A stretch of 63,991 nt of DNA, the filler included, from Raillietiella orientalis (taxonomy: Eukaryota): the NCBI GenBank assembly GCA_036172245.1. It is 4 parts of 4 records of this genome, joined end to end, with 100 filler letters (N's around TTAATTAATTAA, not from the genome) between each part and the next. Parts side by side here need not be neighbours in the genome. Positions count along the whole stretch, not along the records: positions 1 to 17,580 come from JAYWIR010000245.1; 3 more parts are not named here. The stretch is one strand, 5' to 3'. Positions within the stretch are counted from its first letter, which is position 1. Each line of letters starts with the position of its first letter. Positions 1-25,886 of this stretch are shown here, piece by piece. The position numbers and the translations under genes were made by a program. The notes beneath the pieces were generated by a model. It ran no database searches, was not told where the DNA came from, and worked only from the letters and a program-made list of their open reading frames with translations.

Positions 1-129
1 CCCTCGCAATCTCGGTCTTTCGATGTGTCGACAAAGCAGCCCTCCAGGAAGGTTCGAGGTCCTTCCTGGGCTTCGTTCCAAGGCTCTCTTCGGAAGGAGG
101 CAGACAGACAAACTCGACCCCCATTTTTT

Positions 130-3445: not shown

Positions 3446-3588
3446 CCCTCACCAGCTGTCACTCTTAGATTGGTGTTGCCGAGCCATCTTTTATACTCTT
3501 GATTTTCCCCAAGTCCCACAAGGGGTGGGGTAAATTTGTTTTCTATCAAAATAACATTCACACAACAATTTTACATTCACACTCTCAT

Positions 3589-6500
3589 TCACTCGTTATA
3601 CAAACACTTTTTCACTTTGAAGTCCTTTTGAATCACTAGAGTTCTGCTTTTCAGGGTGGGATTCCAGCTGGATGGTCCCGGGCGTCGTCCTCGATCCTCT
3701 TCAGGATGAATCTGTACGTCCAGGCTTGGATTCTTTCTACAGTTCCTGATGCCGATTTCCTTCTTGATGAGTCCTTGCAGAATCTCCATCGGGTTTGCGG
3801 CTCTCCTGGCTTTCCTCATCTTCCACCACCGCACAAGTATGGCGGTGATGAAGAGGGCAATGGTCGTCCTCACCATGGGATTGTAACAGGGAACATTACC
3901 ATCTCCCTGAAACATCCCGGAGAGGATCTCCATTACGGAGCTGGTGGTACGTCCGATGATCCTTTTCACGATCAGCCAGTCGTGAAGCAGTGTGGGACAC
4001 GTCAAGATGTGGAGTCTTGTATCGATGTCACCACACGCCGTGCAGTCTCTGTCTTCCCTTCTTCTTGTGAAGTGCTGTAGTTGGGACCAGGTCAGGATTC
4101 CTCCATGATAGAACATCAGGAGGTTGTCCTGGGTTTTCGGCGGAAGATCACTCCTCCAGAGCGTTGTGCCGATCGCCAGCAGGTTGATGCGATCGCTCCC
4201 GTAGCGGTCGGCGGCTTCTTGGAGGGCACTGGTGTCTCTTTCATCTTCTTTGATCAGTCTGCGGAGGTTCATTTTGGTAAACCTCGACCACGCGAAGTCG
4301 TTGTGGTTGATCCACACCTCGCGGGTCATGTGGGTGAACCTTCCTAACATCATCTCTATATATTGAAGTATACGAGTGTGGTGTAGGTAGCCTCCTCTTC
4401 TCCACTCCTGGATTCGATGCAGGGTAACTCTGGACCGCCAGTAGATCCAGCTTCTCGTGTCCGGCGGAACAGGAAGCAACCAAGGGATCACCAGGATGGA
4501 CTCGTCCTGCCAGAGTTCCCTGCTTCGTGGCACGATCTTGATTTGGTGCTTCCGCACCAGCCGTTGCTTCCTCCTCCAGGTCGGGTCGATTGTTATCCAT
4601 TCCCCTGCTCGACCTAGCAGCGCAGTCAACAGGCTTTTCGAGTTGTTCAACAACAACGGGTAGGCCCGGTGCGCTGCGTATGGCCAGTCATCCCAGTGAG
4701 CGGCAATGTCCAGGATGTGTCGCGTATCCATGATTTCCATGCAATGTGCAGGCGACTTCATCCCGGAACCGCCTTCTTCTTTGGGACGACACAGGGGTTT
4801 AAGACGAACTCTAGGGCGATAGTGGCCCTACAGTGTTTTGCGCTGCAGCTTCTCTACTTCTCTCGTGGTTTCTTTATTCATTCTTGCGAAGGCCGCCCCA
4901 AAGAGTACCTTTGGAAGGAGTACTCCGTTCCTTAGGTTGGCTCTTCGCTTCATGTTAAAGTCCGGTCGAGTGTATTTCGCCGCTTCTTTAACCGTTTTCC
5001 CCAGGATTTCTGTCCACAGCAGCTCTGACGCAGAGTCGTCGCCGATGTAGACTCTTAGGTACTTGGCCGTGTCCACCGTACGGAATCCACTACCCGTTAG
5101 AGTGGAGAGATCCAGTATTCCGACGGGCAAAAGCTGGCTCTTCTGGGAATTGATTTTTAAGCCCAAGCCCTGTTCCATCAGGTCCACCACATCCAGAAAC
5201 GCACGCTGATTTTTCTCTCCCTTGATGAAGAAGAGTAGATCATCGGCTTATGCCAGATGGGTAAGACATTGGCCATCGATGGTAATCCCGCTCAGTCGTC
5301 CGCTCTTCTCGATGTAAGAAGACAACGCCTCCATGTAGATGACGAACAGCATCGGACTTAGCGAGTCGCCCTGCCGGACTCCCCGTTCCATCCTGATTGC
5401 TGCCGTCTCCTGGCCGTTGATCTTGATCCGGCAGTACTGGTTCTGGAGTACCACCCTCACGAAGTTGCTGAAGTGTTCCGGAAGCCCTAGCTTCTCTAGA
5501 ACCTTCAGCAGCATCCCATGGTCGATGGATTCGAAAGCCTTCTCCATGTCAGTGAACACCAGCGCCAGGTTCTCGCCGACGTATCGGCTGAGTCCGACGG
5601 TGGACTGGGCACACTTGACATTGTCCGACATATGTCGTCCGGGGACTGCACACGTCTGGACCGGAGAGATGATCCTCGACATGACCTTGCCTAAGTGGTT
5701 GGACCAGATCTTCGCCAACCACTTGGTATCGGAGTTCAGGATCGAGATTGGCCTCCATTGAGCGACCTGCGTGAGGTTGCCTCTTTTTGGCAGCAATCTC
5801 ATCCGACTCTCGTAGAAGGACTGAGGGAGGCTTCCTTCTTCGCGGATGCAGAGGGTCAACTGGTGGAACAAACGCAGGTAGGCGTGCAGGTACCGCTGGT
5901 AGTGCGTGCTAGGTACACTGTCAGGGCCCGATGCCACATCCTTGCGTAGTTGGCCAAACGCAGTCTTGACCTCGTCTTCGGAGAATTCCTCCTCCAGTCT
6001 ATTCCTCTGGAGGTCGTCGATCCTCTTCTCGAGATATCCCAGGAAAGCTTTCTGACTGGATCGACAGGGATGTTGTGGTCGGAAGTGTTTCTTGTAATGC
6101 CTGCCAAAGGCTTCCACGATATCCTCCGACGAGTGCCGCTTCTGGCCGTCGTACTGGATGCAGAAGATGTCTGTTGCCAGATTCCTCTTCTCCAGCACAC
6201 CGACTTCCCCTTTCACGTTTTGGAAGACGTACCGGCTCTCGTACTGATCGAAGTACTTTGAGAGGGAGCGATCTTGGATGTTCAGCTCCTGGTACGCTTT
6301 CTGCCTTATTCGATTACTAAAGTACTGCATGTTGCAGAACAAATGGATCCTGTACTTCAACCTGTCCCAGTCGGCGACTCTGCGGATGGTGGTGTCCCGC
6401 AGAATCGCCTCAATGACTTCCTGGTGACAGGGATGCGTTTCGAACCAGGCGGGCATGCAGATGAGCACCGCCTTGGTGGCTTTTTCCTTCCGAGGATTCT

Positions 6501-7170
6501 CTGTGCGGAGTGTTAACCGTACCATTGGGTGATCGGACAACAGGTGTGGAATGTCCCGAAAACCCTGGATGCGGTTGTCTATCTCCGCACTGTAGAGCAC
6601 GTGATCGATCGGTTTGTGGCTAGCTGTTCGGCACAGAAGTCCGAAATCGTCGGACAACCGCCGATACGCCGCTCTTTCTCTTGCATCCTGAGAGTACTTG
6701 ATCTCGTCGAGGATATTCAAATCACCCGCGACGATGATGATGTCCTTCGGTGCCACTCGTTTGCGGAGTTCTTCGTGTAGTTTTTCCGCGCACCGATGCT
6801 TGAGATCTTGAGGTCCGTACACGTTCACCAGAAAGAGGTGAACGTTGCTGGACCAGGACAGTCGCACGCCGATGATCCTACCAGGTACCGGACAGAAGGT
6901 TTCCAGAATGGTGTGGGCGAGCTCGTTTTCGATGAGGATCGCCACCCCCATGGTCTTCTTTTGTCCTTCGCTGGTGAACAGTTGCCCGTTTAACCGACGT
7001 TTCATCTCCAGGGCGTTCTGGTGCCCGAGATGGTGGGTTTCCTGAAGGCACACTACATCTTGTCTTGCGATGGTCCGCATGACACTTTTCCTTTTCCCCT
7101 GGTCCGTCAGTCCATCCACATTCCAGGAGGCGATGTTGATCCTCCTGGCACTGGACAGCGACGAGGCCAT
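3589..7170 (-). pseudogene. Family A ORF2: AP endonuclease + reverse transcriptase, disrupted
   Basis: ASWNVDG, CLQETH, VNVYGP, AGDLN, IDH, SDH (APE); WRPISILN, DMEKAF, GVRQGDSLSP, KYL (RT); CTAC..HILTC. YADD reads *ADD (TAA at 5248), second stop at 4828, frameshift near 4765. Confidence 0.93.
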
Positions 7171-7182
7171 GAAAGGGGGAGT

Positions 7183-9104
7183 CTACTTGCCAGTCTTTCT
7201 TGCTTTCCTCAACTTCTTCTGCTGGGGAGACCTTTGCAGTTTCCTCGTGGAAGAAGTGGGTTTCTCACTACTGGCATCGCTCTCGGTGCCGGTGTGATCA
7301 GTGGACTCGAATTCGTCCACAGAGCGTTTTGCCTCGGCGATCACCTTGCGCGGGAGGGTCTCCAAGGAAACCGTCGCACAGTAGACCGCCTTCACATCAC
7401 TGAGCTGGGCCTCCAGCTTCTCCCGCTCTGGTTCCACAACCATGCGGTTGATGTCGTCCTGGGCCTCGCAGATGCGATTCAGGAGTTGCTCCTGCTGCGT
7501 CTCCGGTTGGCTCTGACGGACCTCCTCTGCCAGCTTGATTACCTCCTCGGTGAGTTGCAGGGAGTCCTGCGACTCCGGGGTGTACTCTGGCGTCTTCTTC
7601 TCCTCTCTCTCTTCCGCCACCACCTCCATGCTCTCGCCTACTGCCGCTTCAGCTTCCTGGGTAGGAGGAATTTGGTGCTCCCTGGCAAGCATCTTCCTCC
7701 TCCTTTTCTTTCCCACCTCCACGAAACCGTCCGCCGAAACCGGAGCGGCCTCTCTCGCCTTCTTTTGCTTTTGTAGCTGAGGTTTAATCACCTCATCCAA
7801 CACCCTTTCCCTCACGGGGATTCTCCTCTCATCGTCCGGTAGTTGGCGTACTCCGGACAACTCCATTTCGCATGCCCGGGTTGCCTGCAAAAGGAGCAAA
7901 GCTCGGGCATCTTGCAGTTCCGGACCTGGTGGCCCATCTTCCCACAGCGGAAGCAGCGGGAACTAGGGCAGGCACCTAGCCGGTGGCCGAAATTTTCGCA
8001 GCCAGTGCAGAAGATTGGCTGCTGCCTGTACCTGACTGAGACGTCTTTCGACGCGTCGTCAATCAGTACATTTCCGGGGATTTCTGCCCCCTCTTCCAGT
8101 TTGATTTGTCGATTACCTCGCCCGAGAAGATGTTTCCGGAGATATTCTGTGTTTTCATCACCAGAACTTCTCCGTATTGGGACAGGAAGTCCCACACCGT
8201 TTCCCTCTCTGTGAGGATGCCAAGCCCGTTTAGGAAGACGGTCGTGTAAGGCATTTCGCCAAAGCCTTGGACCATCTTCCCCTGAATATTAATGCTTTTT
8301 TCAATTAGGGCCTCATGCAGCTCCTCGCAATCCGTGTATAAAATAAATCCCGCTGAATTAGGGATTATCGCTTGGAGGCGGTCGAAATCTACATTGGTTT
8401 TCTAGAGTGTGCAATACACCTCCCTCACGTTGTTAAACCGGATCAGACCGGTTTTAAATGTAATCGGCTTGGACGCCAAGCTGAGTCGAAACATCGGCTC
8501 TTTCGTTCGAGTGATGTTCTCACTCGCCGGTTTGCCGAACACCCTATTCGGCTGTACAGAGGCCTGCCCGCCGTCACCGACGCATAAGAAAAGGGCTGCG
8601 ACGCCGCAGCCGAACAAGATGGCGTCGCTCCCTGCACCGCGTGGACGCCCGCGGGTCCCGCCTGGGACGCCGCCGCCGCGGGCTCAAACCTCGAGGTTGC
8701 CGCCTTTACCGCCGCGGGCGGCACCCTCGGCATCGCAGCCGCAGGCGCGACCTTCTTCGCCGCGGGCACGATCCTCGGCGTCGCCGCCGCGGGCACGACC
8801 TCCGCCGTCGTCGCCGCGGGCACGACCCTTGGCATCGCCGCCGCCGGCGCAGCAAAGCCCGCCGCGGGCGCGATCCTCGGCATCGCCGCCCCCACCTCGC
8901 CAGTGCCGCTAATTACCTCCATGGCTTCCTCCATGGGGGACGCTGGCCGCTCCACACTTCTTCCTCCGGACTGCCTCCTGATGGCCGCCGTGGCTGCCGC
9001 TGGAGAGCTTCGGAGGTCTCCCACCTGAGGGTCCTCTTCGCTGCTGCTGCTGTTGGAGATGTCCCTCGGTGGCACTGTCACTTCCGCACTTTCCTTTTCA
9101 AATA
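7183..9104 (-). pseudogene. Family A ORF1 (gag-like, 3x CCHC), frameshifted
   Basis: CTGCENFGHRLGAC, CFRCGKMGHQVRNC, CSFCRQPGHAKWSC; acidic/charged tail; Ala/Pro N-terminal repeats; split over several frames. Confidence 0.9.
8680..8890 (-). repeat. GC-rich coding minisatellite in ORF1 N-terminus (MPRxxPAA units)
   Basis: Repeated GCCGCGGGCACGAYC blocks; shorter version in copy 2 at ~52380-52545. Confidence 0.75.
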
Positions 9105-9246
9105 CTTGCCCTCTCGGGGCACGCAAAAATTGCCGCGGCAGTGGTTTTACTCACTGCCTTGGCGGGGTATTGGGTAAAGTTTTCAACTAGCAATAATCAC
9201 GGCTTAGTCACCTTCCTCGCCTATGATACTGCCCGTGCGCAAGTGT
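9105..9246 (-). ncRNA. U4: U4 spliceosomal snRNA (gene or full-length copy), ~142 nt
   Basis: Minus strand reads ACACTTGCGCACGGGCAGTATCATAGGC...GTGATTATTGCTAGTTGAAAACTTTACCCAATACCCCGCC, stem GGCAGTG/CACTGCC, Sm site AATTTTTG, terminal hairpin TGCCC/GGGCA; matches the recalled metazoan U4 layout including both U6-pairing segments. Confidence 0.93.
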
Positions 9247-9275
9247 GAACTTTGACATTTTCCAGCTTTCTGGAT

Positions 9276-9294
9276 CATCTTTCATACTCTTTGA
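9276..9294 (-). promoter_or_regulatory. Candidate snRNA proximal sequence element (alternatively a target-site duplication)
   Basis: TCAAAGAGTATGAAAGATG at about -48 to -30 of U4; near copy at 3485-3502. Confidence 0.35.
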
Positions 9295-9349
9295 CTTCTT
9301 TTTCTACATGAAACCATGTGCTGGCATGAAATAGGTTTGCCTTTATACT

Positions 9350-9799
9350 TCACCCGGTAACAACGTAAGTCTGCTCCAGGCTAATTACGTATTCGGCTAC
9401 CTGTCCTAGTCGCGCAGCCCACAGTTTCGCGATTAACTTGACGTCCGTTTTAATAACCGTGATCGGACGCCATTTGTTTAACTTACGGAGGTCTCCTCCC
9501 TTTGGAAGAAGCGTCATCTTAGCTGACCGGAACGAGGCGGGAACATCGCCTTCTTTTCGGATCAGCTGTGTCAACTTATGCACCTAGTGGGTTAACTCTG
9601 CCGCGAAGCTTTGATAAAACTCCGCGGGAAGGCCGTCTTCCCTTGGTGCCTTCCGACTCTTGAGCCTTTTTATTGCGGTGATGATTTTACAGGTCGTAAA
9701 AGGCTGATCGAGGCTTGGCATCTCTTCCTCCTCTATGGTTGGGTCTCCGTCCGGGAGCAGCAGTCGCGAGGCATCCCGCTCGGGAGGCGCCCTGGCGTG
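9350..9799 (-). mobile_element. L1/Tx1 RT fragment
   Basis: KAPREDGLPAEFYQ, LLPKGGDLRKLNKWRPIT, EQTY. Confidence 0.9.
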
Positions 9800-11643
9800 A
9801 GAACGTGTTTTTTCTGCGCTTCTGTTGCACATGTTTGCGAAGCCTTTTTTAAGTGTGTTTGTGAGAGGTGCATCGCCAGTGTCTCATGGCGGGAATGCCT
9901 GAGGACACCACGATGGAAATTGGAGGGGGAGAGGCATGTTTCTCTCCGCAACCCACGTAGGTGGGGGAAACCGCCCCCAAGGAGAAGAGGGCAACCGTTC
10001 CCTTGAAAAGTGGGGCAACCGCCCCCTCGGAAGTATGGGCAACCTTCTCCTTGAGAAAGGGGGCAAAGACCCTCCTGAAAAAGGGTTCAACCGCTTCCTT
10101 GGAAAAGGGTACAATCGCCACCCTGGAAAAGGACGCAACCGCTCCTTTGAAAAAGGGGGCAACCGCGTCCGTGGATCCGTCTTCTGTAAACACGAAGACC
10201 TGGAGCGCCGTGGCTGCAGCGCAATTTCCTGCACCCTTAGCTGAGCAGCGCGCCTACCTGGAACAAAGATACAAGCTGTCCTTGATTCACAAGGTAGGAA
10301 ACCTGTTCGTTGGAAATAAAATCCCTTTATTTCGAGAGGGAATTGCAGCTGCTTCAAGTTAAAGAGGGGGACCTGCTAGGTCTTTCAGTGCTCAGTGGGG
10401 GTCAGCAGGTGGAGCTAACTTGTACAGATGCAAGCCTGGCTCAGCACCTGCTGAATATATTCTTTATGCTGGAAAGCAAAAGGGTCTTCCCGGAAACCGA
10501 GGATCGCTCGGTTGTTGCATACCTCACAGGAGTTATCCTCCACATGACGAAAAGCGGCAATCAGGAGGAACTCAGCAAGTACGGCACTGTTCACGCGCTG
10601 TGGACCAAGCCGAAAGTCTTCCAAACCTATGGAAGATCGTTTGGCGGCATGGCTGCAGCGCGCGTAAGCGTGCATGAAAACAGTGGGCTGCCCCACAAGC
10701 TGGACGTCGGCAACGAGACGGTCGACGTCTGGTACGTGGGCAAGCCCAAGTACAGCGGAAACTGCGATGCCAGAGGGAACCTGAAAAAACGGTGCCCTCA
10801 CATCCAGTGTTTTCACTGCGGGAGAAGGGCCACCTCCGGAAAGTGTGCTAAAGCAGGAACCTCCAGCGCCCTCTGCCTTGAAAAAAGGTAAGGGGAAACG
10901 CTTGGAGAAAACAAGCAAGCCCACTGAGGCAAAGGAAAGGCAGAGCAAAAAGCCAGAGTCCGAATGCCCCCAGCAAACGGCGGTCGAGAAAACTCCCGAC
11001 GACGCTAGTGACAACAAGGACTGGCGGACAGCGAAGCCGAAAAGTAAAAAAAGCCGAAAAACCGAAGAACCGACAGCGGAACCCGCGACAACTTCTCTAA
11101 ATAGAAGGCAACGCCGCGCTTTGCTCCGCGACTGCTCGGTCGCTTTGGAGCGCGTGGTGGTCCCCGAGACCGTCACCGGGGGAGATATTTCCCGCCTCGT
11201 TGCCGACGAAGACGCGATCACGGAAGGCAAACCCTCTGTGCAAACAGAGGAAGAGACGTGCGACGCGCTCTCCGCAATCGAGAACGCTGCCTTCCAGCAG
11301 GCGGCGGAAGAGCTCGCTGCAGAACTCGCCGACCGTGAGAGCGGCTCTCAAAAGGCCTTGCGAAGGCCGGCCGCGAGCAAGACACCTCCGACAGGTGACC
11401 AAGACCCGGAAGCCGGAAGTGCGTCCTCCTCCGCGGAGGTGCCTCCCAAGACTGGACGGAATTCCAAGAATCCAAAGGGGCGCATCCCGACGAAAAAAGA
11501 GGGGGACGCACCGGCAGCCGAGGGGGAAGCCGGCAGCGTGGGAACAAAGGAAGGGATTTTCCCACCCTCCGCTACCGAGCAGCTGGCCACCCCATGGAGG
11601 AGGCTGAGCAGGTAGGTAATTGCCTCCCCCTGCCACCGCTGGG
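9800..11643 (+). mobile_element. L1/Tx1 element F: 5' UTR + decayed ORF1 (ATG 9886)
   Basis: AACGTGTTT start; TWSAV, PHKL, VDVWYVGKPKY, degenerate knuckle and CFHC; stops and frameshifts. Confidence 0.88.
9967..10168 (+). repeat. 24-bp coding tandem repeat (ATAPLKKG-like, about 8 units)
   Basis: GCAACCGCYCCYTTGAAAAAGGGG-like units in tandem. Confidence 0.85.
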
Positions 11644-13635
11644 AGAACGTGTTTTTCCTTCGCTCCCAAGAGAGGCGTAGGAAGCTTTATTTCAGTGGTT
11701 TTCTAGTGTGGAACATCGTTGGTGTCCGATGGCAACCTTGCCTGAGGACACCACGATGGAGGCAGGAGTGGGGGAGGCTTGTCCACCCCCACAGCCTACT
11801 GGATCAAAGACATCTGCCGCAGAGTCATCCCCGACCTCGCCGAGGACATGGAGCGCCATGATGGCTGCGTCCAGCGCGGAAGCCATGGCGGAGATGGCTG
11901 CCTACCGGGCAGCTGGGTACATGCCCAGCTTAGTATACCAGGTAGGCAATCTCTTTGATGGGCGAACTTCACGCGCCTTTACGTAGGCGCTGCAGAACGC
12001 CAACGTACCAGAAAAGGATCTTGACGGCCTATCTGTGCTTAGCGGGGGTCAGCGCGTCGAGGTTGTCTGTAAGGACATTACCTTGGCGCAAACTCTGATC
12101 ACCACCCCGCTCAACATGGATGGGCGCAAGATCTTGTCAGTCACGATGGACCGCTCCGTAGTGGTCCATCTCACTGGCATCACCAGACGCATGACTCGCT
12201 CTGCGGTTGGTGATGAACTCAAGAAGTTTGGTGAGGTACACGCGCTGCAGCCAAAGGGCTACAATAGCCTTTTCGGGGGCAGGCCGCCGCGCATATAACT
12301 GTGAACGAGGGTGGAGCGCTAACTCACAAGCTGGAGGTCTGCCAAGAGCCGGTAGACCTCTGGTACGTGGGGAAACCCCGCTACTGTGGGTACTGTAACA
12401 CAGTAGGACACCTCCGCAAAAGGTGCCCGCATATACAGTGCCACCTGTGCGGGGAACGGGGCCACGTTCGGCGCGAGTGCCCCAAGCCTCAACCCGGTGC
12501 CACCTGCCGCCAAAAAGGCGCAGGTGAAAAAGGAGAGAAAGGTCGCAAGACCTAAAGTTGAAAGTGGCCGGCAGAAGCTGCGACTCAAAAGTCGGAGGAA
12601 CAACCTTCCGAAGTAGTGGAAGGGAAAGAGGGCTGGAAAGTTGTAAAAGCCCGAAAGGAAAAAAAGATTCCGAACTAGGAACCCGTGAAAGCGGAGAAAA
12701 AGCCGGCCAGTAAGGCGAAAAAACCTGGGCCGCGCTCAAAAACTCTGCGGGAGTGCACGGTGGCACTCGAACGAATTGCCGTTCCCGAGGCCGCCACCCG
12801 GGGCGACGAGCCTCCCCTCGCCGTTTCCGCCGCACCCGAGGCTCACGACGGCGAACCCTATGTGCGAACAGAGGGTGAGCCGCGCGACGCGCAAGTCTAC
12901 AGCGAGGACGCCGCGTTCGCGCAGGCGGCGGAGGAGCTCCCGGCCACGCTGGCCGAGCGTGAGAACCCCTCACGCAAGGCCGTGCGAAGGTCGGCTCCGG
13001 CGAAGAAGGTCCTTGCAGGTGAGTGCGACCTGGGGGCCGGAGGCACATCCTCCTCTTCGAAGGCGCCATCCAGGAAATCGGGACAAAAGTCTCAGAAGCC
13101 CAGTAGGCGCCTCCCCTCCACCAACGAGGAGAAGACGGAAGCCGTCGTCAGCGTGGGAACCCCGGAGGAGGAATTCCCACGCTTGGAGGCCGTGGAGCAG
13201 GCCAATTCCATGGAGGAGGGCGATCAGGGAGGTGAAGTTCTCTCTGCAGTCGCCGTGCCTGAACAGCCCGCCCCCATGGAGGAGGACCAACAGATAGGCG
13301 CGACGTTACCCGCGGGCGAACCGCCTCACGCTCCGGCAGCCATGGAGGAGGGTTACCAGGTGCCTTTAGCACCTGACCCTCCTCCTCCTCGCGTCCCGAC
13401 CAATAGGTGGCGGACTCCGCAGAGCCAATTTCCCAGGAATAACACCTGGGCTCGCCTGTCGCCGTCGGATCCGCGTGGCCAGTTGCAGCGTCAACGGGCT
13501 GCGAGACGACGGCAACAGACGACATGCAACCGACACCCTGCGTGAGCTCGACCTGGCCTTGTTGCAGGAGATCAACGTGATCACCGTGGCAGACGTCCAG
13601 GAGATCGAGATGATCGCGGGGGGTCGGCTGTTTAT
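11644..13635 (+). mobile_element. L1/Tx1 element G: 5' UTR, ORF1 (ATG 11729) and APE N-terminus, decayed
   Basis: CGYCNTVGHLRKRC, CHLCGERGHVRREC; then ASCSVNGL...LLQE...IAGGRLF cut by an antisense insertion. Confidence 0.9.
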
Positions 13636-16331
13636 CACCCGGGTGCGCCGGGGCGTTTATTGAAAAACTATCCGGGAACAGATTTCCCGGATAAAGGAAA
13701 CACAAGAGACGAAGGGGGTGGGATCGCCGACACGCAGGTAGGTATGCCGAAAGTCCGGAACGGGAGGGAGGGGACCACAAACACACTAGTATAAAAAATA
13801 AAAATAAAGATATAGAGGGCAGGGGACAGGGGTCTTTGGTTCGGCCGTTCCTTCCTTTCAGAACCGGCGATGGATGACGGCGATCTCACTCCTTACCCTC
13901 TCTGAAAGATTGGTCTACTCGGCAGCCGACGACATGCTTGCGCTGGCTAATCCGGTAGGCTGACGAAGGATGGCCAGCTTCTCCAACTCTCAGTGGGCCT
14001 TGTCGATGGCACGAGTGCAACACACGGTTGCAACGACAGCACCTAAAGACAGGCCGCCTGGCGTGAAGAAGCGGCGCATCTAGTCTCCCGCGGTGTCCCC
14101 CTGGTGCAGGAGAGCTAAGGCCAGCCTCCGCCACAGTCCTAGGAGGGCACCGCAGTCCAGGAGCAGGTGCAGGAGCGTTTCCACTTCCCCGCAACGCTTA
14201 CAGTTTGGGGAGACAATTCCCCCGGAAACGCGGTTCGTCTGCTGGTTAGAGTGAAAACCCCAATGCACCAGCATGATGACGTCTTTCTTCCACGAAAGAA
14301 AGAACACAGAAGTGTTCAAACAGGAGGGAGGGACCACAAGTTCTTCGGGGGGCACACTCAAGTGTTCACTCCACCGAAGGAGTCCCTTCGGGATGTGGCG
14401 AGGCGTGGCGGCGTCTGCCAGCTCGCAAGTCCTCAAGCCGCCAATGGGTCGTGTTGTTCCTGCGATGGTGCAGGCGGCATTTTATCTTTCCGGTTCGCAG
14501 CTGTCATCTCTTGCCCTGAGGGCTGACAGCATGTCGGCGAGGGGCGTGACGGCCAGGCGAGTCCACGTCTCCTGGCTGTTGCACACCTCATCCACCGTGT
14601 AGTACGGGGAGAGGTGAGCCTAACGGAGTTCCTGGAGGGAAGCATCCTGGTGCTTTGCCAAGCCATGCAACGGTACCTGCCGCCAAGCTTGAAAGTTCGT
14701 TGGGCGACAGGAGATCTATTCCTGGGCTGCCAGGAGCCGGTAGAGGGTTTTCAACGGGAAACCGAAGCTTCTCGTGGCGCGCTCCGTATGCATCCGCAGC
14801 AACAGAAGTCCATCGCTGTCGCTGCAGCGCCGCAGGAGCAAGCGTGCAGGAGCGAGCCACGGAGTGGATCAAATGTTGGCGCACAGGGCCAACATCCGAA
14901 ACTGCACCTGCAGCTCCATTCTATCCAGCGTCAGGATACCTAAGCTTGCATCCCGACGCGGAGCCGCCAAGTCTTTGAGGCATATCCTGGATCTCGCAGG
15001 TACCCACAGAGCGTTTCTCAACAGGCTGTGCGCCTGGAACTTGGCCTAGTAGAAGGGCGGGCAAACAAAAAGCAGGGGGCGCAAGAGGGGAGCAGCGAAG
15101 GTGTTAAATATCGCGGCCCGCTCCGACAGGAGGAACCTGCCATGGTGGAACGTGCTCCGAGCATTCGTAGCATTCCAAAGGCAGTCCGACCACACTTCCA
15201 CTGGGCTGATGTTCAACAGCGGAACGTCCAGATTTTGCATGGACGAAGCGGTCGGGATCCCCAGGCGGATCCAGTCGGACTGCCCCTCCCACGCGGCACC
15301 AATACGAACGACCATGCTCTTGCTCCAGTTTACGCTCATACCCGCTCCCCTGCGAATCAGCTCGAAAAAATTATCGAGACTGGACGCTGGGGTGGTCATG
15401 GGTAAAAGGAGAAGCAGGTCGTCGGCATAGACCGCCACAGACGGCGTTCCTGGACAAGAGCTCGGCAGATTGGCCACCGTCAGCCTGTACGCCCTTAGCA
15501 CCAACTCAAAGAAGATGCTGAAGAGCAACGGGCTTAAGCTGTCTCCCTGCCTGATGCCCCGCCGCACCGGCACGCTGTGCACGTGGCAGCCGCCGAAAGA
15601 GATCGAAATCAGCACATGGCGCCAGGAAGCGCGCAAATCGGCCACGAGGTTTTTCACTCGGGTGAGCCGGGGCTTTTATTATTAAAATTTTTACAAGGCA
15701 AAAAATTTCATAATAAAGTCTTGATTTTCCGTTGTTCTGCTTGTTTTTCAGTCGGAACACAAGAAACGACTGACTTGAAGGAGTCGTCCTTACCTACCCG
15801 CAGGCCGATAAGGTCCTCCACACAGGCGCGGGGGCAGGAAGAACCAAAAAAAGAAACAGAAAAAGCAAACGCCTGGGAGTAATGTCCTGGGAGTGGGGAA
15901 GGGAAGGGATCACGGTACGCCGTGAGTAGGCCATTGCACCCGGTCACGGATGCGGAGGAGTGCCTGTAAATGTTTTCAAAGGCGGCGCAAACGGCAAGCC
16001 TTCTCTAAGGAGATGGCTGCCCAGTGGATGGAATTCCGACTGGTATGGCTTCTCCTTGAGAAGATCCACTTGTGCACTATTCCGTGTGTGCAACAGAGCA
16101 CTGCTACACACCCGAAAGCTGGCAAGGCGTCCAGCATCAGGAGTCGAAAGATGTTCTTCGGGTCGCCACGCGGAATGTTGCAGATCGACAAGAGTCGGTC
16201 CCACATATCGCGGAGGGAAACGCACTCTAGGATCGAATTAGGCAAGGTAAAACACGAGGTGCATTGGCAGACCGAGTCGTTTCAGGAGCTCCAGAAGAAG
16301 ATCCTGATTCACGCAGTCGACCGCCTTGCGT
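13636..16331 (-). mobile_element. L1/Tx1 family C copy 1 (RT to 3' end), interrupted by D
   Basis: RKAVDCV, GIRQGDSLSP, YADD, CKRC..HLLLDC; 3' end AATAAA-CGCCCCGGCGCACCCGGGTG. Confidence 0.92.
15651..16252 (-). mobile_element. 5'-truncated L1/Tx1 family D insertion with target-site duplication
   Basis: ORF2 C-terminus + 3' UTR + terminal hairpin; CACGAGGT on both sides (15643-15650, 16253-16260); host RT resumes across it. Confidence 0.85.
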
Positions 16332-16334
16332 GCT

Positions 16335-17580
16335 CCAGGGTGGACGTGTTTTCTCGGTGCTCCTCGTGCCAGGAAGTCTCCCCCAGTGCAAGCGTCGTGT
16401 GGTTCGGTGGTCGATCAGGCAGCGATGCCTGACGCGACCACCAGGGATGGCCAGGGGGCAGCGGCTACGCCGCCCCCAGAGGCGATGGAGAGCCAGGGGG
16501 CGGCGGCAACGTCGCCCCCGGAGGCGATGGAGGTGGGGGCATCTGCCCCCACAGAATCGATCCCCGCTGCAGCGCGGGCGTGGAGCGCCGTTGTGTCGGG
16601 GCCATCGCCTGCAGCCGCGGCGGAATTGTCGGCCTATGTACAGGAGGGGTACAACCCCTCATTGTTCTACAAGGTAGGCAATTTATATTCTTCAGAGAGC
16701 GCGCGCGCCTTCTCGAAAGGCATGTGCGCTCTCGATGTGAAAAAGGAGGAGCTCAGCGCTATGACCATCCGCAGCGGGGGTCAGTACGTTGAGGTCATCT
16801 GCAAACAAGCAGAGCTGGCCCAACGACTGCTTAAAACCACCGTGGTGATGGAAACGCGCAGGCTCCTCCCTATTACGGCGGACCGCAGCATGGTGGTCCA
16901 CCTGTTAGGTGTTCCCGCGCGGATGCGCGAGGAACAGATTCGCGCCGCGTTGGAGGAATACGGAACGGTCCACGCGCAGTGGACGAAAGTTAGTCCTTTC
17001 GAGGACTACACGGGGCTGCAACACGGCCTCACTGCTGCGCGCGTGACCGTTCGGGAGGGCTGCACTCTTCCCCACAAACTGGTGGTCGAAGGCGAAACCG
17101 TCGACCTCTGGTATGTGGGGAAGCCGAAATACTGTGGCTTCTGCAATACGTCGGGCCACCGCAAAAAGAGGTGTCCCAATGTGCAGTGCCAAGTATGCGG
17201 CACAATGGGCCACACGAGGGAGGTGTGCCCAAAAGCAGCAGTGCGGGTGGTTTCCAAGAGAAACCTGAAAAAACGCGCCCGGCTTCTGCAGAAAAGGCTG
17301 GCGGCGAAAGCTGCCGCGAAGGCTGTGCCACCCGCGCCCAAGACCCAGGCCGCACCCGAGACCCCGGCGACCAACGCCGAAAAAGTTGAGGGAGCCGGCC
17401 AGGAGACTGGGTGGCAAGTGGCAACGGCCAAAAAATCAAAGAAGGAGAGGAGGATGGAAAAGAAAATCGCCTACCAACAGAAGAAGAAAGAGCAGGTTAG
17501 CGCGATAATTAAAGATTGCAGAGTCGTTGTCGAACGCGTTCTCGATGTTGCCGAACGCTGCCGGAAAGAACTCGCCGCTA
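16335..17580 (+). mobile_element. L1/Tx1 element H: 5' UTR + uninterrupted ORF1 (ATG ~16425), cut by contig end
   Basis: GACGTGTTT start; CGFCNTSGHRKKRC, CQVCGTMGHTREVC; open to the linker. Confidence 0.92.
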
Positions 17581-17680: not shown

Positions 17681-18020
17681 CGAGCTTCCTGGCAGGTCCC
17701 AGGAACTATTGGCCGTAGCGGGGCCTAGTATCGCAGTTGTACTGTTTTTTTTTTTTTAATAAACGCCCCGGCGTTACCTGGTGAAAACTTCCCCGTGTCC
17801 AATGGTGGCGGCGTGCATTGCAGGGGAGTCCCCAATGCAACAGCATAAGCGCCGAATCCTGCCATTTAAGGGGAAGGATCCTTTTTTGGGTTATCACTGG
17901 GGACCACTTGAGGTCATCCGTCCTGATGCCGAGCAGCTCGCCCCATTTTCTTAGTCCTTGCGGAAGGACGCTCTGGGTTGTGGCGTCCGCCAGCTGTCCC
18001 ATTGTCCAACCACTCAACAG
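17681..18020. mobile_element. Family B 3' end (+, 17681-17787) joined to a minus-strand B-like ORF2 fragment
   Basis: AATAAA + hairpin + GTG-AAAA, then antisense LHWGLPCNARR/GWTMGQL fragment. Confidence 0.85.
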
Positions 18021-21000
18021 TACTCCGGCACGTTTATTAAGAAAACGTTTTATTCGTCATTACAGTACGTGGTACAAGGCCCCACTAACGGCCACTCAGT
18101 GCCGGACCTGCCGGGACACTGGGACGCAGCCCGGTGTGACTCTCCTCGGCAGTGGAAGGGAATGGGGGGAAAAACAAAAAGAAAAATAAACCAGTAAAAA
18201 AAAGAAAACAGTTTTTGGAGGGAAGGGAAGGGATCACAGTCCACTGGGAGGAGGGTCCATCCTTAGTAGGATACCCTCGAGGTCCTCCTTCAATCTTCCC
18301 AGCTAGGGCCATCCAATCGCTCTCCACAGGAAGCGAATAGCATATGGGATGACGTCCATTACGGTGGAATCTTCATCTTCGGCATTACTCCAGGCCGCCA
18401 CGATACCACGGATGCAGCAAAGTGCTGCGAGGGCTGCGTCTGGACTGAGGGCGTCCCGCACGAAGAGAAGACTGTAAACATTCCTGGGGTTGCCGTCTTC
18501 CGGTATACCGAGGGCCGTTCCAAGACGATCGCAAAGAATCCGGACGGCACAGCAGTCAACTAGGAGGTGGGGGAGCGACACCCGCTCCCCACACCTTGCA
18601 CACGCAGGATCTACTCTTCCCCGCGTCCTGTGGAAGCGGCGCGCGTTGCAAGGTAGACCCCAATGCAGCCACAGAAGCGCCGATTCTTGCCACTTCAGGG
18701 GAAGAATCCTGGATCCAAGTAGAACCGGGGGCCAATTGAGGTCATCCAATCGAATGCCGAGCAGCTCGCCCCATCTTCTTAATCCACGCGGCTGGACACT
18801 TGGGGTCGTAGCATCTGTCAGCTCTCCCATGGTCCAGCCGCTCATTATCTTCTCTCTGCCTGCTATACGGCAGCAGACTTGCCACCTCGGCTTCCGGCTT
18901 TCGTGAAGCGCCCTTTGGAGGAAGGGCATTGCCGTAGCAAGGGGTGTCCCTTCCGCCCACTTGCAACTCGCTGGAAATTGAAGAATTTCACGCAGGGTGC
19001 GGCGGGCGTAGAAGCCGATTCGCAGGCAGTTCCACGTTTCGTGGCTCCTCTCATGTATCTTCGCCCACGTGCCAACAGTCTCCTCCAGCCATGCGGAGGA
19101 GTTGGCGGGGCAGCATACCATACAGCCGTTCTCCTTAGCCAAGGTTGACATGCGTCCAAGGAGCAGGCCGCATCTTCTCATCTTCCGGCCGGAGCACAGA
19201 AGATAAGACGCTAGTCCTTGCGTCCTGGAGACACGGCTGGCAAGAAGGCGGGCCGGAATGCACCAAGTGGTGCTCCGCAACTTCGCTGCGATGGCCATCG
19301 TGCGCCATCGCAGCTGGATTTCCAAGCGCTCCAGAGTCAGGAGACCAAGACCGCCGTCCCGACGCGGAGCGCATAAGTCCGTCAGAGGCACTCTAGGCCT
19401 CCCTTTTCCCCAGAGGGCGATCCGGAGTAGGTCCTTGGTCCTCTTCTTCAACAGGGTAGGGACGGGGCAAACAAAAAGCAGGGGACGAAGGATGGGAGCC
19501 GCGGACGCGTTCCATACCGCGGCTCGTTCCGGCAAGAGGAACGGAACGGAACCTTGCCCTCCAGGAACGGGCCGATCGCCGACTCCACTTTTTGGAGACG
19601 ACCTGACCAGGCTTCTGACGGGCAGAAGTCCCCCAACGGCACGCCAAGGTACTTCAGGTACCTGGCCGCGGGGATCCCCAAGCGGATCCAGTCAGGCCGT
19701 CCAGACCACGTCGCACCAACCTCCACCACCGACGACTTAGCCTTGTTCACCCGCAGTCCCGTCCTGCGGCTTAACAGATCGAAGAAATCGTCGACTGCAG
19801 CTGCCGGGGTGGACATGGGTAACATCAGCAGATCATCGGCGTACGCCGCTACGGCGGGCGTGCCGGGGCACGAGCTCGGCAGGGGGGCCGAAGTCTCCCT
19901 GTACGCCCTCAGCACCAACTCAAAGTAGGTGCTAAAGAGCAGGGGGCTGAGGCTGTCGCCCTGCCTTATGCCCCGCCGCAAAGGCACGCCATGCACCTTC
20001 TGACTGCTGAAAGAGACGGAAATTATCGCATGGCGCCAGCAGGAGCGCAGGTAGTTGATCAAGGTGGGTGGAAAGCCCATGCGACCCAGGAGATCCAAGA
20101 GGAGGTCCTGGTCCACGCAGTCGAACGCCTTATGGAGATCGACTGCGATCGCTACGGCCCCCTTTCCCGCCCGGGTGTCCCTTCCCTGTCCCACTGGCGG
20201 CCCAAAAGTGGGGTTGCAAATTTTCCCGTTCCCTTCCTTCTTACTCCGCTGCGCGTGCATCCATGTGCTCGCGAGGAAGAGGTTGTCCTCCATACTTCGC
20301 CCGGGAACAGCGAAAGTCTGCTCCGGGCTAATTATGGAATTGGACACCTGCCCCAATCGCGACGGCCACAGCCCGGCGATCAACTTGGCGTCCGAGTTCA
20401 CAATCGTGATCGAACGCCAGTTGCTTAGTTTCCGGAGGTCTCCTCCCTTCGGAAGGAGCCTCACCCTGGCTGACCGAAACGAGGCGGGAACATCGCCTTC
20501 GTTTCGGATCAGCCGTGTCAATTGGAGCACCAGGGGGGCCAGCTCTTCCGCGAAGCTCTGAAAGAACTCCGCGGGCAAGCCGTCCTCCCCTGGCGCCTTA
20601 CTCCTTTTGAGCCTTTTGATACCAGCGAGAATTTCGCAGGTCGTGAAAGGCTCATCGAGGCTTTCTCTGTCCTCCTCCCCTATCGCCACGGAACCACTCA
20701 TGAGCAATCGCCGCGAGGCATCGCGTTCGGGTGGTGTTTTGGCGTGAAGGGAGGAATAAAAACACCGCACGAGATTCCGTACCGCAGCCGGGGACGAACG
20801 TTCCCGGCCCAGATCATCCAGCATGCTGGCCGACCCGGATTACCAGGCTTGCCGCTCGGCCCCGCCACGGTATTCGGCCATGCGACGGACATTGGGGTTC
20901 CTCTCGTGACGACGCGCGTGCAAATACGCGCTTTCGTTGCGAGCCCCCTCGCCAAATCCCCGGGGCACACGGTGCAAAGGGAACTGCTCGCAGAACTCCC

Positions 21001-21668
21001 GGACCGAGTCCTTAAAAAGGTCCCAATCCGTGAGACTCTGGAGGGTGACGCCTCGCAGGAATTCGCGAAGGTGTTCTTTCGCTCCTGACAGGCGCATCCA
21101 GTCCCCTGGCATACGCCAATCCCTTGATGGCGGTCCCTTGTCGCGCGGGCGCATCTCGAATAATAACCGGGGATGGTCCGACAGCGTCGATCCAATTGTC
21201 CCTCGTTTTCCGACCCGTGTGCACAGGTCTTCGTCGAGAAAGACGTGGTCCACGCTGCTGACCATCCCCTGTATTCCTGTCAACAAGTTGCGCGCGCGCA
21301 TGGCGGCGCACAACTCGCTGATCGCGTTCCCCTGTGCTCCGGGCTGATCTGAGAGCAGGCGGACGTTGAAATCCCCTACTATCAGATGCGCCTTTCGCAC
21401 GTCCGTGTCCACCAGCCATTCGCGCTTCAAGGTTTCCAGTAACGCATTGCGCTGCTGGTACCCCTGTTTACCGCTAGGAGCGTACACATTGGTGACGATG
21501 AGGTCGATCGAATCGGACCATCTAAGAGTCAGTTGGCCGATCCGTCCTTCGTCCCCAAAGCGCACGCCCTTCACGGCAGCGTCGACGGCCGGCTTCAAAA
21601 AGAACGCGACCCCGCAGGTGTTGCGGGCGCCACATTTCCAGTACAACCGACCCCCCGCGATCGTCTTC
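18021..21668 (-). mobile_element. L1/Tx1 family B (APE-RT-3' UTR), few frameshifts
   Basis: TNVYAP, GDFN, SDH; DLHKAFD, GIRQGDSLSP, YADD, KYLG; CARC..HLLVDC. Confidence 0.95.
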
Positions 21669-23939
21669 GGTGGAGGTGTGGCCAACAGCAGAGAGTTTCT
21701 GCAGGCCCGCCAATTCTCCCGATGCCCGGACGTCCGGTACCTTGCGGAGTACAAGGCCAAGGCCGAGCGCCAGGTCTGGCAGTCAGGAGCAGCTTGTCTG
21801 CTCGACGACCAGGGCCTGGAGTGCTCGGGCGCGGCCGAAGTTCGCCGCCTCCTAAAGCGCTATTACTCCTTGTTGTACGCTAGGGAGCCGACGGAACGCA
21901 GTCTCTCGGAGCTGCTTCTGCCGGCGGATTCCCCGGCGGTCGACGAGGAGGAACGCGCCACTCTTGACTTGCCCTTCACGGCGGAAGAAGTGTCTTCCGC
22001 CATAGCGGGCCTCAAGAAGCGCAAGGCGCCAGGTGAGGATGGTCTGCCTGCGGAGTTCTTCCAGTGCTTCGCGGCGGAACTAATCCCCCTGGTGCTGAGG
22101 CTTTCTGCGCTGATGCGAGAGACGGGCAATGTCCCGGCCTCGTTTCGCTCAGCAAGGGTGCGTCTCTTGCCGAAAGGCGGAGACATGCGCCATTTAAGCA
22201 ACTGGCGTCCCATCACCTTGGTGAATGCGGTCGTCAAGTTGTTCTCCAGGCTGTGGGTCGCGCGCCTGGGCAGGATCGCTGGATCCGTGGTAAGTCCGGA
22301 GCAGTCTTACGCTGTTCCCGAGCGGTCCATGGAGGCGAACCTGTTCTTCGCGAGCACGTGGCTCGAGCTGCAACGCTGCGTGGCGCACGACAGCCAGGCA
22401 ACCGCGTCTGCGGCTGCCGAGGCTAGGCGTCGCTGCATTCGGCCTGGGGAAGCGCCGGGTGCCTTGGCGGTCGCGGTCGATCTCCGCAAGGCGTTCGATT
22501 GCGTAAATCAGGATCTCCTGCTGGAGCTCCTGGAACGCCTCGGTCTCCCGGTGCACCTCGTGGCGTATTTGCGCGCTTGCTGGCGCCACGCGCTCATTTC
22601 CATCTCTTTTAGCGGCTGCCACGTGTACGGCGTGCCGGTGCGGCGGGGCATCAGGCAGGGCGACAGCTTAAGCCCGTTGCTCTTCAGCATCTTCTTTGAG
22701 TTGGTGCTGAGGGCGTACAGGCTGACGCTGGCCAACCTGCCGAGCCTTTGTCCAGGAACGCCGTCCGTGGCGGCCTATGCTGACGACCTGCTCCTCCTCT
22801 TACCCATGACCACCCCGGCATCCAGTCTCGAGGATTTCTTCGAGCTGATTCGCCGGGGAGCGGGCATGAGCGTAAACCGGAGCAAGAGCGTGGTCGTACC
22901 TATTGGTGCGGCGTGGGAGGGGCAGTCCGACTGGATCCGCCTGGGGATCCCGACCGCTTCGTCCACCCAATATCTGGGCGTTCCGCTGGGGAACATCAGC
23001 CCAGTGGAAGTGTGGTCGGACTGCCTTCGGAAGGCTTCGAATGCCCTGAGCCCGTTCCACCATGGCAGGTTCGTCCTGCCGGAGCGGGCCACGATATGGA
23101 ACACCTTCGTTGCCCCTCTCTTGCGCCCCCTGCTTTTTGTTTGCCCGCCTCCCTACTCGGCGAAGCTCCAGGCGCACAGCCTGTTGAGGAACGCTCTGTG
23201 GGGACCTGCGAGGTCCAGGATCCGCCTCAAAGACTTGGCGGCTCCGCGTCGGGATGCTGGCTTAGACATCCTAACGCTGGAGAGAATCGAGCTGCAGGTG
23301 CAGCTTCGGATGTTGACCCTGTACGCCAACCTTTGGTCCACTCAGTGGTGCTCTCCGTGGTGTTTCCGGGGGAGTTGTCTCCCCAAACTGTAAGCGGTGC
23401 GGGGAAGTGGAAACGCTCCCGCACCTGCTCCTGGACTGCGGTGCCCTCCTAGAACTGTGGCGGAGGCTGGCCTCAGCTCTCCTGCACTAGGGGGACACTG
23501 CGAGAGACTTGATGCTCCGCTTCTTCACGCCAGGCGGCCTGTCGTTAGGTGCTGTCGTTGCAACCGTGTGTTGCACCCGCGCCATCGACAAGGCCCACCG
23601 AGAGTTGGAGAAGCTGGCCATTCTTCGTCAGCCCACCGGAATAGCAAGCGCGAGTATGTCGTCGGCTGCCGAGTGGGCCCATCTTCCAGAGGACGTTAGG
23701 AAAGAGATCACCGGCATCCATCGTTGGTTCTGAAAGAAAGAAATGGCCGTACCAAAGACCCCTCTACCCTACCCTCCATATCTTTATTTTTATTTTTGTA
23801 AAAGTGTATTTGTGGTCCCCTCCCTCCCGTTCAGGACTTTCGGTATACCAACCTGCGTGTCGCAAATCCCTTCCTTCCTTTCATCTGTGTCCTCTGTAAC
23901 TGGATAATTTATTAATAAATGCTCCAGCGCACCCGGGTG
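21669..23939 (+). mobile_element. L1/Tx1 family C copy 2, 5'-truncated, open RT frame, internal deletion near 23360
   Basis: DLRKAFD, GIRQGDSLSP, YADD, QYLG; sequence present in copy 1 (~14235-14855) is missing; 3' hairpin end. Confidence 0.93.
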
Positions 23940-25200
23940 ACAAACAACTGACCCTCCGCGATGGTCTCCATCTGCAGGACGTCTGCCGCAGTGATCACGT
24001 GGATCACCTGAGTAGGGCCAGGTCCAACTCACGTAGGGTGTCGACCGTATCCCGTCTGTTGCCGTCGCCGCGCAGCCCGTTGACATTCCAACAAGCCACG
24101 CGGATCCGAGGACGAAAGGAGCGCCCAGGTGCTAATCCTGGGAAATCGGCGTTGCGGCGTCCGCCACCTAGGGGGCAGGACGCAAGGAGGAAGAAGGGGG
24201 TTGCTTCGAGCACCTGATCCCCCTGCACCATTGGTGCCGCTGTGTCCGGCGGCTCCGACGAGGGAGGTGTCGCACCAACCTGATCGCCCTCCTCCATTGG
24301 GGCAGGCTACTCGGGTTCGGCGCATGCAGGGGGGGCCTCCCTACGTTGCTCACCCTCCTCGATTATGGTCGCCTGCTTACCGGGTTCCGGGCGTGTGAGC
24401 TCTCCCTCAGGGTTTCCCACGCTCACATCTGTTTCCGGCTTCAGCTCGCTCGTTGACGGAAGGAGTCTCCTGGGCTTTTGGGACTTTGATCCCGCCACAT
24501 AAGCTGAACACCTGCTATCCTCTCGATGTCCCGCGCATGTTCTGAGAGATCTGATCGTTCTCCTGCAGCAAGGCACGAGGTCGAAGGGATGAAAAGTATG
24601 TCTCCTCTCCTGCCGTCATCGCAAAGACGGTTGACGTTCCAGCAGGCGATGCCTATTTGACAGCAGATGTCGAGTCCCGGCATTCCTGCTGGGAAAGTGA
24701 TGCTGCGTCTCCAGCATCCCCATCGGACGGGATGCTTTGTGACTGCACCGCTATGGGGGGCGCCTCTGTGACTTCCTCCGCTTCCATCGGTTCCGCAGCG
24801 ACCGCGCATCAGAATCCAGGACACGTGTCCATTTCTCCCCACGCTCTGAGAGCACCATTCGCGTGCACGCTGTGCAACGCGGAATCTTGTCGGCATCGCA
24901 CTGCTGGCGGAATGTGAATGGGTTCCATGGGTGCAGCTATCTTTCCGAGTCTGTCGCCGTCATAACCCCATTCCTCCGGCAACTTCGAAGTCGGGATCAG
25001 GAACGCTTCATGTTCCGAACTCCTTCCAGGATCGCTTTTTCGATCCAGAAGTTGGTGCTGCAGCCATTCGTGCTGGCATTGCGGGATAAAGGCATCTGCT
25101 GACAGGATTCGCTCTCCGTTTCTTCCCGAGGCAAGGCGACCAGCCAACCGCTGCCCCTAATATGAGGTTCCAACAAGAGCAACCACCTTGAGCAACCGTC
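23940..25200 (-). mobile_element. Decayed L1/Tx1 ORF1-end and APE N-terminal remnants (at least two)
   Basis: VACWNVNGLRGDGNRR (~24050-24100) and IACWNVNRLCDDGRR (~24610-24655); right boundary approximate. Confidence 0.75.
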
Positions 25201-25886
25201 GTGGTCCCTCTCTCTTTTTCCCGTTACGCAACCGTGGTGTCAGGGTTTTCCACTAAGCCCGGAAACTAGCTTGGGTGTATTGCGTCAGGAAAGCGGGAAA
25301 GAAAGGGGGACGTTGTCGTGAAATCCAGTCTGCACACGGGCATCTTGCCCGTTCATCCTTTCAGTGCACGTCACTTCCGTCCCGAATGTTTCGCAAGGCG
25401 TGTTCACGGCGACCTTGAGACCCTTGTGCACCGACCACACCGCATGTGGACGATCCGTAGATTGCAGGTACACCTATTGTGCCTACCCTCGACTCGTTCG
25501 TTCTTTTCCCTTGAAAAAGGAACGCTAAAGAGAGAAATATTGCCCTTGCTTATCAAATTCTCGGAGCACGATTCAAAAAATAGACTGAGCCGTGTCGAAA
25601 TGGCCTTTGCGTTCGCTTCATGCCGCCGCACCATCCACAAGATTTCCTCAGCTCTTCCTAGATCACGCAAGCACCAGCAGCAACATCGCAGCGACGAATA
25701 ATTTATTTTCAACCTTAAGGTGTGGCTTACCAACGAACACCGTAGGCATCCAGAAGCATCATCACGCCCATTGCATGTGCTTCATACAATTATGCTTGGA
25801 AACCTGTGATGGTAACAGCCACATTCCCATGAGAACCATGTAAGGTACAGAGCAAACTTTTATTTCCTATACGAGATACCAGCAGA

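Follow-up and report, generated by a model that had tools for sequence, protein, structure and literature searches.

Long interspersed nuclear elements (LINEs) that insert at specific sites are known to use ribosomal DNA (rDNA), telomeres, small RNA genes, microsatellites and DNA transposons as targets, and they are natural models for programmable RNA-templated DNA insertion. R1, R2, TRAS and SART are sequence-specific LINEs of rDNA and telomeric repeats, R2 carrying a restriction-like endonuclease. An open reading frame 1 (ORF1) with CCHC zinc knuckles upstream of ORF2 is typical of the L1 superfamily and the Tx1 clade. The parts of a survey of the Tx1 clade that deal with targets (PMC4494074) place Tx1L in the Tx1D piggyBac-type transposon, Tx1-Mar in Mariner-N4_AMi, Tx1-8_Crp and Tx1-4_AMi in long terminal repeat (LTR) retrotransposons and Tx1-9_AMi in Harbinger elements. 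The same parts report tandem insertions that sandwich a target site duplication for Tx1-Mar/SINEU, ascribe the target choice of sequence-specific LINEs with an apurinic/apyrimidinic endonuclease (APE) to the encoded endonuclease (citing Takahashi and Fujiwara 2002) and use the working rule that a LINE is target-specific when more than 20% of its flanks are of one sequence type (PMC4494074). Zepp and ZeppL of green algae are described, in the portion of the report concerned with their arrangement, as GC-rich LINEs in nested clusters that form local GC peaks (PMC3446292). Here we have analyzed a window of 63,991 nt of the genome of Raillietiella orientalis (GCA_036172245.1), i.e., four contigs joined by N spacers (c1, 1-17580; c2, 17681-35152; c3, 35253-52599; c4, 52700-63991), to which all the results below refer. 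In this window two LINEs of one family, which we call C, end at the same nucleotide of the endonuclease gene of related LINEs.

The window contains two 3' ends of the C family, and both of them (2/2) occupy one and the same nucleotide, in antisense orientation, within two diverged hosts; a third relative carries the site empty. In c1 the host is element G (11646-13630, plus strand), delimited by translation and by tblastn to a related LINE called H. It has a 5' motif at 11646, ORF1 and the N-terminus of the APE down to ...E-M-I-A-G-G-R-L, from which we name the position the GGRL site. The last codon of G is the Leu at 13628-13630; directly next to it come the C1 tail, in reverse complement (TTTAT, 13631-13635), and, from 13636, the body of C1. 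This element (13631-15650, minus strand) was delimited by a scan for the 3' motif, tblastn and alignment to C2, and comprises the tail, 3' motif, 3' untranslated region (3'UTR), C-terminal domain and reverse transcriptase (RT), up to another LINE, P. In c2, C2 (21666-23944, plus strand) is a 5'-truncated LINE of the same family that starts at its own F-G-G-G codons; its body ends at 23939, the tail ACAAA occupies 23940-23944, and the host G' begins on the minus strand at 23945. G' (23945-24493) is the upstream part of the C2 host, with the tail of ORF1 and the APE N-terminus to ...T-I-A-E-G-Q-L, and includes at 23945-23970 the upstream copy of a duplication. When both hosts are aligned in their own sense, G and G' stop at the identical nucleotide, right after ..GGTCGGCTG and ..GGTCAGTTG. 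The empty site is found in H (38074-38123, minus strand, E-T-I-A-E-G-R-L-Y-W), in which the position equivalent to the putative nick lies between 38098 and 38099.

At the other side of C2 is B (18021-21669, minus strand), with the APE from (K-T)-I-A-G-G-R-L-Y-W, the RT and the C-terminal domain, the 3' tip being damaged. B would be the downstream part of the C2 host: it ends at 21669, where C2 begins, and picks up 26 nt upstream (in host sense) of the point at which G' stops, so that two 26-nt copies are present (21644-21669 on the minus strand and 23945-23970) that agree at 22 positions. Most simply, 21669 would be the 5' end of the same C2 insertion into a single host, G'+B, flanked by a 26-nt target duplication. 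A preliminary description of this DNA had noted an overlap of about 24 nt with three mismatches; the overlap is real, and by our measurement it has 26 nt and four mismatches. The same description took the two flanks for different host families, brought together when separate insertions recombined, a view that the data do not bear out. Beside the site B is 85% identical to H (50/59), rising to about 91%, and G' is 78% identical (47/60), falling to about 60% in the ORF1 tail. This is a gradient and not a step, the difference between the two flanks at the site is not significant, and one host with its target duplication accounts for both. Internally, C2 is without some 620 nt that are present in C1 (14230-14848 compared to 23357-23371), within the C-terminal domain at about residues 146-358 on the scale of B.

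There is a second reading of the joint at 21669, in which C received a 5'-truncated B. The 5' end of C2 consists of its own F-G-G-G codons (TTCGGTG), located 7 nt ahead of the point at which the B family inserts (the GFG site, see below), and the neighbour is precisely B. Each of the two readings involves one positional coincidence, softened by the TTCG microhomology that is common to both. We prefer the insertion of C into G'+B because its 3' junction is intact and its duplication matches, and favour less the insertion of B into C because the 3' junction of B is missing and the upstream half of C would have to be lost. Besides the availability of this second reading, a further point weakens the case for a target duplication: the 26-nt overlap is a conserved motif, in which the match of B to the c1 host G is about as good as that to G', and the duplication is for this reason unproven. 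Under either reading, 21669 is not a separate C insertion at the GGRL site. Two other explanations were considered and rejected. A 3' transduction, in which C would have carried the 549 nt of antisense G' by read-through, is disfavoured by the match of B to G' (22/26) as compared to the adjacent LINE fragment M (19/30, counted by hand), and also by the identity to H, of about 60% in M and 85-91% in B. Twin priming, or 5' inversion, does not fit the C/G joint, where the APE piece adjoins the 3' tail and not the 5' side.

The coincidence of the two C ends suggests a fixed site in related LINEs rather than random insertion, and we consider it on balance probable that the C family integrates by target-primed reverse transcription (TPRT) at one fixed nucleotide of its relatives. 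A nick in the host sense strand would fall immediately behind the Leu codon of I-A-G-G-R-L, the APE motif (..GGTCRGYTG^TAC). The 3'-OH at the nick would serve as primer, the C RNA being copied starting at its tail, which would leave C in antisense orientation. A second nick in the other strand, about 20-26 nt upstream, would give rise to the target duplication. The precise tailed 3' termini, the 5' truncation and the duplication of about 26 nt argue for TPRT started by an endonuclease on double-stranded DNA. Over the whole window, the marks of TPRT are a common 3' terminus on seven ends, the 5' truncation of C2 together with its 26-nt overlap, and a 7-nt duplication around P. By analogy, the C endonuclease, or another DNA-reading part of the ORF2 protein, may be what recognises the site. 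The C family itself would be an L1/Tx1-like LINE, whose 3' end has AATAAA, a CCCGG...CCGGG palindrome and a short A-rich tail. The preliminary description had proposed a group of LINEs targeting the endonuclease gene of their relatives; what our analysis retains is one family at the same nucleotide and orientation in two distinct hosts, and not the four-fold recurrence that was claimed.

Several observations weigh against a fixed site. The case for C at GGRL has n=2 events, both from this window. The APE of the C family is absent from it, the C fragments showing RT only in Pfam searches. The 9-mer GGTCRGYTG is also found unoccupied at 59503, i.e., short motifs alone do occur without an insertion. 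Another family of the window, A, has two 3' ends with unrelated flanks and no sign of a fixed target within the window. P (15651-16252) is a 602-nt 5'-truncated LINE end inserted in the C1 RT at H^L-V-A-D-L-R in sense orientation, with a 7-nt duplication (CACGAGG, plus strand), indicating that not all the nested insertions are antisense or at shared sites. Lastly, the search of metagenomes with the C 3' terminus gave a single match (L001), to an unrelated coding stretch and attributable to chance, and copies from outside the window are lacking.

The preliminary description counted four antisense junctions as recurrent insertions within one stretch of about 45 nt. All four are present, antisense and within a few bases of where they had been placed (13630/13631, 23944/23945, 21669 and about 45866), and they do cluster, over a span of about 54 nt. 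As recurrent events they number fewer than four: 21669 is part of the C2 insertion, and the fourth lies 43-54 nt away and involves a different element. This last junction, of the 5' end of element I with the APE of E, is indeed found at about 45866, upstream of the C site and not at it. The E stretch from G-G-R-L to the joint (45818-45871, minus strand) is intact, E being unbroken through Y-G-G-R-L (its Leu codon is the reverse complement of 45818-45820), and the motif of I starts at 45866. The empty sites of E and H read GGGCGG, and the occupied ones of the window GGTCRG. The hexamer CACGTC is common to the conserved 5' end of I and the H-V codons of E, and the 3' end of I lies beyond the contig. 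I most likely used another nick, because the other duplications in the window measure 14-26 nt and this joint is 43-54 nt off, and the E/I joint probably represents another site, used by a different element. A further break lies close to the GGRL site and does not involve C. M (24494-24700, minus strand) comes from a third LINE that is more distantly related (about 60% identity to H); it is an APE N-terminus with an intact I-A-G-V-Q-L site. It ends at ...I-A-G-V-Q-L-M-W, 7 nt past the Leu codon, where it is joined (24494/24493) to the 5'-truncated start of G' in the same orientation.

Other coding motifs of the window are occupied in a similar way. B, D and J belong to one family by their 3'UTR, and H is assigned to it by its APE, being 89.7% identical to B. 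The tail of D (plus strand) follows host-sense ..GGATTCGGCG, in the P-R-G-F-G^E codons of H (37394-37414), and is thus an insertion into D's own family. The tail of J (minus strand) follows ..GCTTTCGGCG in a remnant of 15-22 nt, O, lying between the 3' end of J and the 5' end of H (40142-40164). The two intact 3' ends of the B family (2/2) are therefore found after host-sense ..TTCGGCG, in the G-F-G^E codons located past the APE. The 5' end of H lies 15-22 nt ahead of this G-F-G^E point, and J-O-H is therefore arranged as two B-family insertions that sandwich a target duplication. The 3' tail of E follows ..AAAGCTTTTGA, antisense in the K-A-F-D codons of the RT of L (42150-42215). In c1, the full-length 5' end of K (motif at 16343) joins C1 just ahead of R-K-A-V-D, with 7-12 bases between them (16253-16345); the piece of C1 left between the P insertion and the K 5' end is an upstream remnant at 16253-16332 on the minus strand (R-K-A-V-D-C-V-N-Q...L-P-M-H-L-V). 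The 3' end of Q (plus strand) is joined antisense to the C-terminal C-N-A-R-R..T-R-G codons of N, after host-sense ..CGGGGAAG (17758-17830). These last codons were examined as a fourth shared site and discarded, only the insertion of Q into N being clean: the 5' end of P is about 38 nt off and the internal deletion of C2 ends 14-17 nt ahead of the equivalent T-R-G site.

Among the seven clean 3' junctions, 2 of the 21 possible pairs coincide to the nucleotide and in orientation, when by our own arithmetic (uniform insertion, a host of about 5 kb and two orientations) about 0.002 coincident pairs would be expected. The use of the GGRL site may belong to a broader tendency of the LINE families of this genome, each of them directed to a particular conserved coding motif in its siblings. 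We tentatively put forward, with more doubt than belief, a guild of LINE families each reading a different sibling coding motif (IAGGRL, GFG^E, KAFD and others), own family included, with single-nucleotide precision and nearly always antisense. As a speculation, the antisense rule could come about if the LINE RNA paired with the homologous host copy, the displaced sense strand being then nicked and used as primer.

That the C1/G and C2/G' junctions derive from one old event, as the preliminary description had allowed, stays the main rival, although the pattern of divergence speaks against it. A single C would have inserted in a G-type host, the composite being copied later by segmental duplication or trans-mobilisation and part of C homogenised by gene conversion. 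Indeed, blastn aligns c1 13079-14229 with c2 24494-23362 straight through the junction, and identity does not change abruptly at the joint, being about 80% on either side (APE compared to C 3'UTR, p=0.58). The differences between G and G' in the APE are also even over codon positions (16, 14 and 15), like those left by neutral decay, and the third-position excess between C1 and C2 is not significant once CpG transitions are left out (20, 17 and 30, p=0.13). All of this weighs against two insertions. However, a dead block should diverge evenly, and the identity between the two composites is 70.4% in the ORF1 tail (267/379), 80.7% in the APE (142/176), 83.1% in the C 3'UTR (285/343), 94.4% in the C C-terminal domain (221/234) and 89.9% in the C RT (721/802). 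Overall, G and G' are 73.7% identical (409/555) and C1 and C2 89.0% (1227/1379; chi-square p=6.7e-17), and the contrast persists for the APE part alone against the C coding sequence (142/176 and 942/1036, p=7.6e-5). Over 202 nt of the APE N-terminus, G is as close to H, with its empty site, as to G' (81.2% in both cases), G' and H being 77.6% identical, and G and G' do not look like sister copies. The differences in the ORF1 tail of G and G' favour third codon positions (46 compared to 25 and 30). The outer flanks are different as well, G extending to a full 5' end and G' stopping at M. The ratio of nonsynonymous to synonymous change (dN/dS) between C1 and C2 is 0.50 over 266 RT codons (bootstrap 95% interval 0.31-0.86, with 0.6% of the bootstraps at or above 1), a value unexpected for dead DNA, and therefore part of the divergence arose under selection, in active source elements. 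The uneven divergence, the closeness of G to H and the dN/dS together point to hosts and inserts from separately active lineages and thus to two insertions. We infer that the two C hits were independent, an origin by two events being clearly the better supported by these comparisons, and regard the single copied event as unlikely.

A second possibility is that this part of the APE is a fragile or recombination-prone stretch, broken for instance by microhomology end joining, by ectopic recombination between parts of the nest, or by template switching or inversion in the course of reverse transcription. Of the six APE N-termini outside family A, as many as five have their break in one stretch of about 60 nt (G, G', B, M and E, only H being intact), the E/I and B/C2 joints show the microhomologies CACGTC and TTCG, and the M/G' joint was formed with no C element. 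The C joints are of another nature: they are complete tailed 3' termini at the same base, C2 is flanked by the 26-nt duplication, and the marks fit TPRT and not a 5' inversion, which would leave the inverted piece on the 5' side. Different families, besides, use different fixed sites. We therefore consider general fragility improbable as the origin of the C joints. Even less probable, and in our opinion scarcely credible, is a chance coincidence in a dense nest or an artefact of the assembly joining repeat copies. The repeat pile is certainly heavily fragmented, with dozens of junctions, and the contigs are short and end inside repeats. Chance has to face the two coincident pairs out of 21 given above, and mis-joins are unlikely to fall twice exactly at the tail of an element when the copies are only 80-90% identical. 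Taken together, the observation of the junctions is solid, the independence of the two events is probable, and the specificity for GGRL rests on those two events.

The contigs c1-c3 form a GC-rich nest of elements (55-60%) within AT-rich DNA. Mapping by self-blastn and tblastn gave at least 15 nested LINE fragments, the clusters being built of LINE copies themselves. Their order is A1(-), R(-), F(+), G(+), C1(-), P(-) and K(+) in c1; Q(+), N(-), B(-), C2(+), G'(-) and M(-) in c2; and D(+), H(-), J(-), L(+), E(-), I(+) and A2(-) in c3. Similarity of the 3'UTRs groups C1 with C2 in one family and B with D and J in another, and leaves E, P and Q each on its own. The ORF2 of the elements codes for an APE-like endonuclease followed by a reverse transcriptase (Pfam Exo_endo_phos and RVT_1 in the ORFs of the window). 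The ORF at 5248-7182 matches them with E=3.9e-15 and E=7.5e-21, respectively, and the APE domains of B and H gave poorer matches (E=6e-4 and 2.8e-5), which do not exceed the gathering score. The ORF1 of I has a zf-CCHC match in Pfam, and two CCHC motifs are visible in the ORF1 translations of K and I. The best match of the family A ORF2 among solved structures was human LINE-1 ORF2p (E=2e-44), R2 reaching only 6e-27, an indirect hint of the L1 superfamily or Tx1 clade; the protein search with the same ORF2 retrieved distant relatives only, with identities of 30% or less.

Seven LINE 3' ends have in common AATAAA, CCCGG, 4-6 nt, CCGGG, TGR and an A-rich tail of 2-5 nt (13636-13661, 15655-15683, 17758-17783, 23914-23939, 37374-37400, 40156-40182 and 42212-42238). 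A conserved 3' hairpin was considered and discarded: RNAalifold predicts a stem of 5 bp with covariation in none of the five pairs, and we speak only of a conserved palindrome. The full-length 5' ends share ..GGACGTGTTT, and the start motif (GGGTG)GACGTGTTT is found in F at 9803, G at 11646, K at 16343, H at 40122 (reverse complement) and I at 45866. In this group of LINEs the motif probably represents a conserved 5' terminus or the place where the promoter starts.

Around the nest, the 3' end of A1 adjoins a tandem-repeat satellite at 3503. Two tandem-repeat blocks occupy 127-3445 (about 127-1482 and 1489-3445), with self-alignment offsets of about 277 nt and identities of 69-77%. About 10 kb of c2 (24800-34800, 45-55% GC) contain many ORFs of 110-206 amino acids. 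None of the 13 that were scanned reached the Pfam gathering score, the only hint being a weak DUF7155 match (E=0.006, 17 compared to 27 bits), and none matched the LINE queries. In c4 we found minus-strand exons of the organism itself, coding for spectrin repeats (58357-59037 and 59884-60225) and a FUBP C-terminal domain (57783-58163); these domains identify the organism as an animal.

If the proposed targeting is true, relatives each reading a different coding motif of 10-25 nt would provide a series for the study of target change in the APE or ORF2 protein. It would also be a case of competition or niche-sharing among transposons, with a safe harbour in dead and living relatives, in which the elements live inside, and break, one another. 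Nested targeting would account for the deep nesting of the repeat islands of this genome and would be a caution to annotators, since LINE models that look chimeric here would be real nested insertions.

The comparison with the systems described above places this locus at some distance from each of them. As in R1, R2, TRAS and SART, the 3' junctions are precise to the nucleotide, the orientation is fixed and the target is multicopy, but those LINEs use multicopy genes or repeats of the host and not other LINEs, and among solved structures the best relative is in this case human L1 ORF2p and not R2. Zepp and ZeppL resemble this nest as GC-rich clusters of nested LINE copies, a likeness of arrangement and not of homology; the part of that report dealing with the clusters describes clustering and no fixed nucleotide target in a coding motif, and the present genome is that of an animal (PMC3446292). 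Our literature search, which covered neither Repbase reports nor subscription journals, brought up no paper in which coding motifs of LINEs serve as targets for other LINEs. Compared to the working rule for target specificity, 2/2 of the C 3' ends lie at GGRL and 2/2 of the intact B-family 3' ends at GFG^E, numbers far too small for the rule to be applied. By analogy, the nearest known systems would be the LINEs of the Tx1 clade that aim at other transposons, the likeness being one of targeting. Both are APE-type LINEs at a fixed position and orientation inside other transposons and, as far as the published sections on targets describe it, both show tandem insertions sandwiching a target duplication (PMC4494074). 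The differences are that conserved protein-coding motifs in sibling LINEs, own kind included (D into H), serve here as targets, that several families have each a motif of their own, and that the 3' end consists of a palindrome and a short tail.

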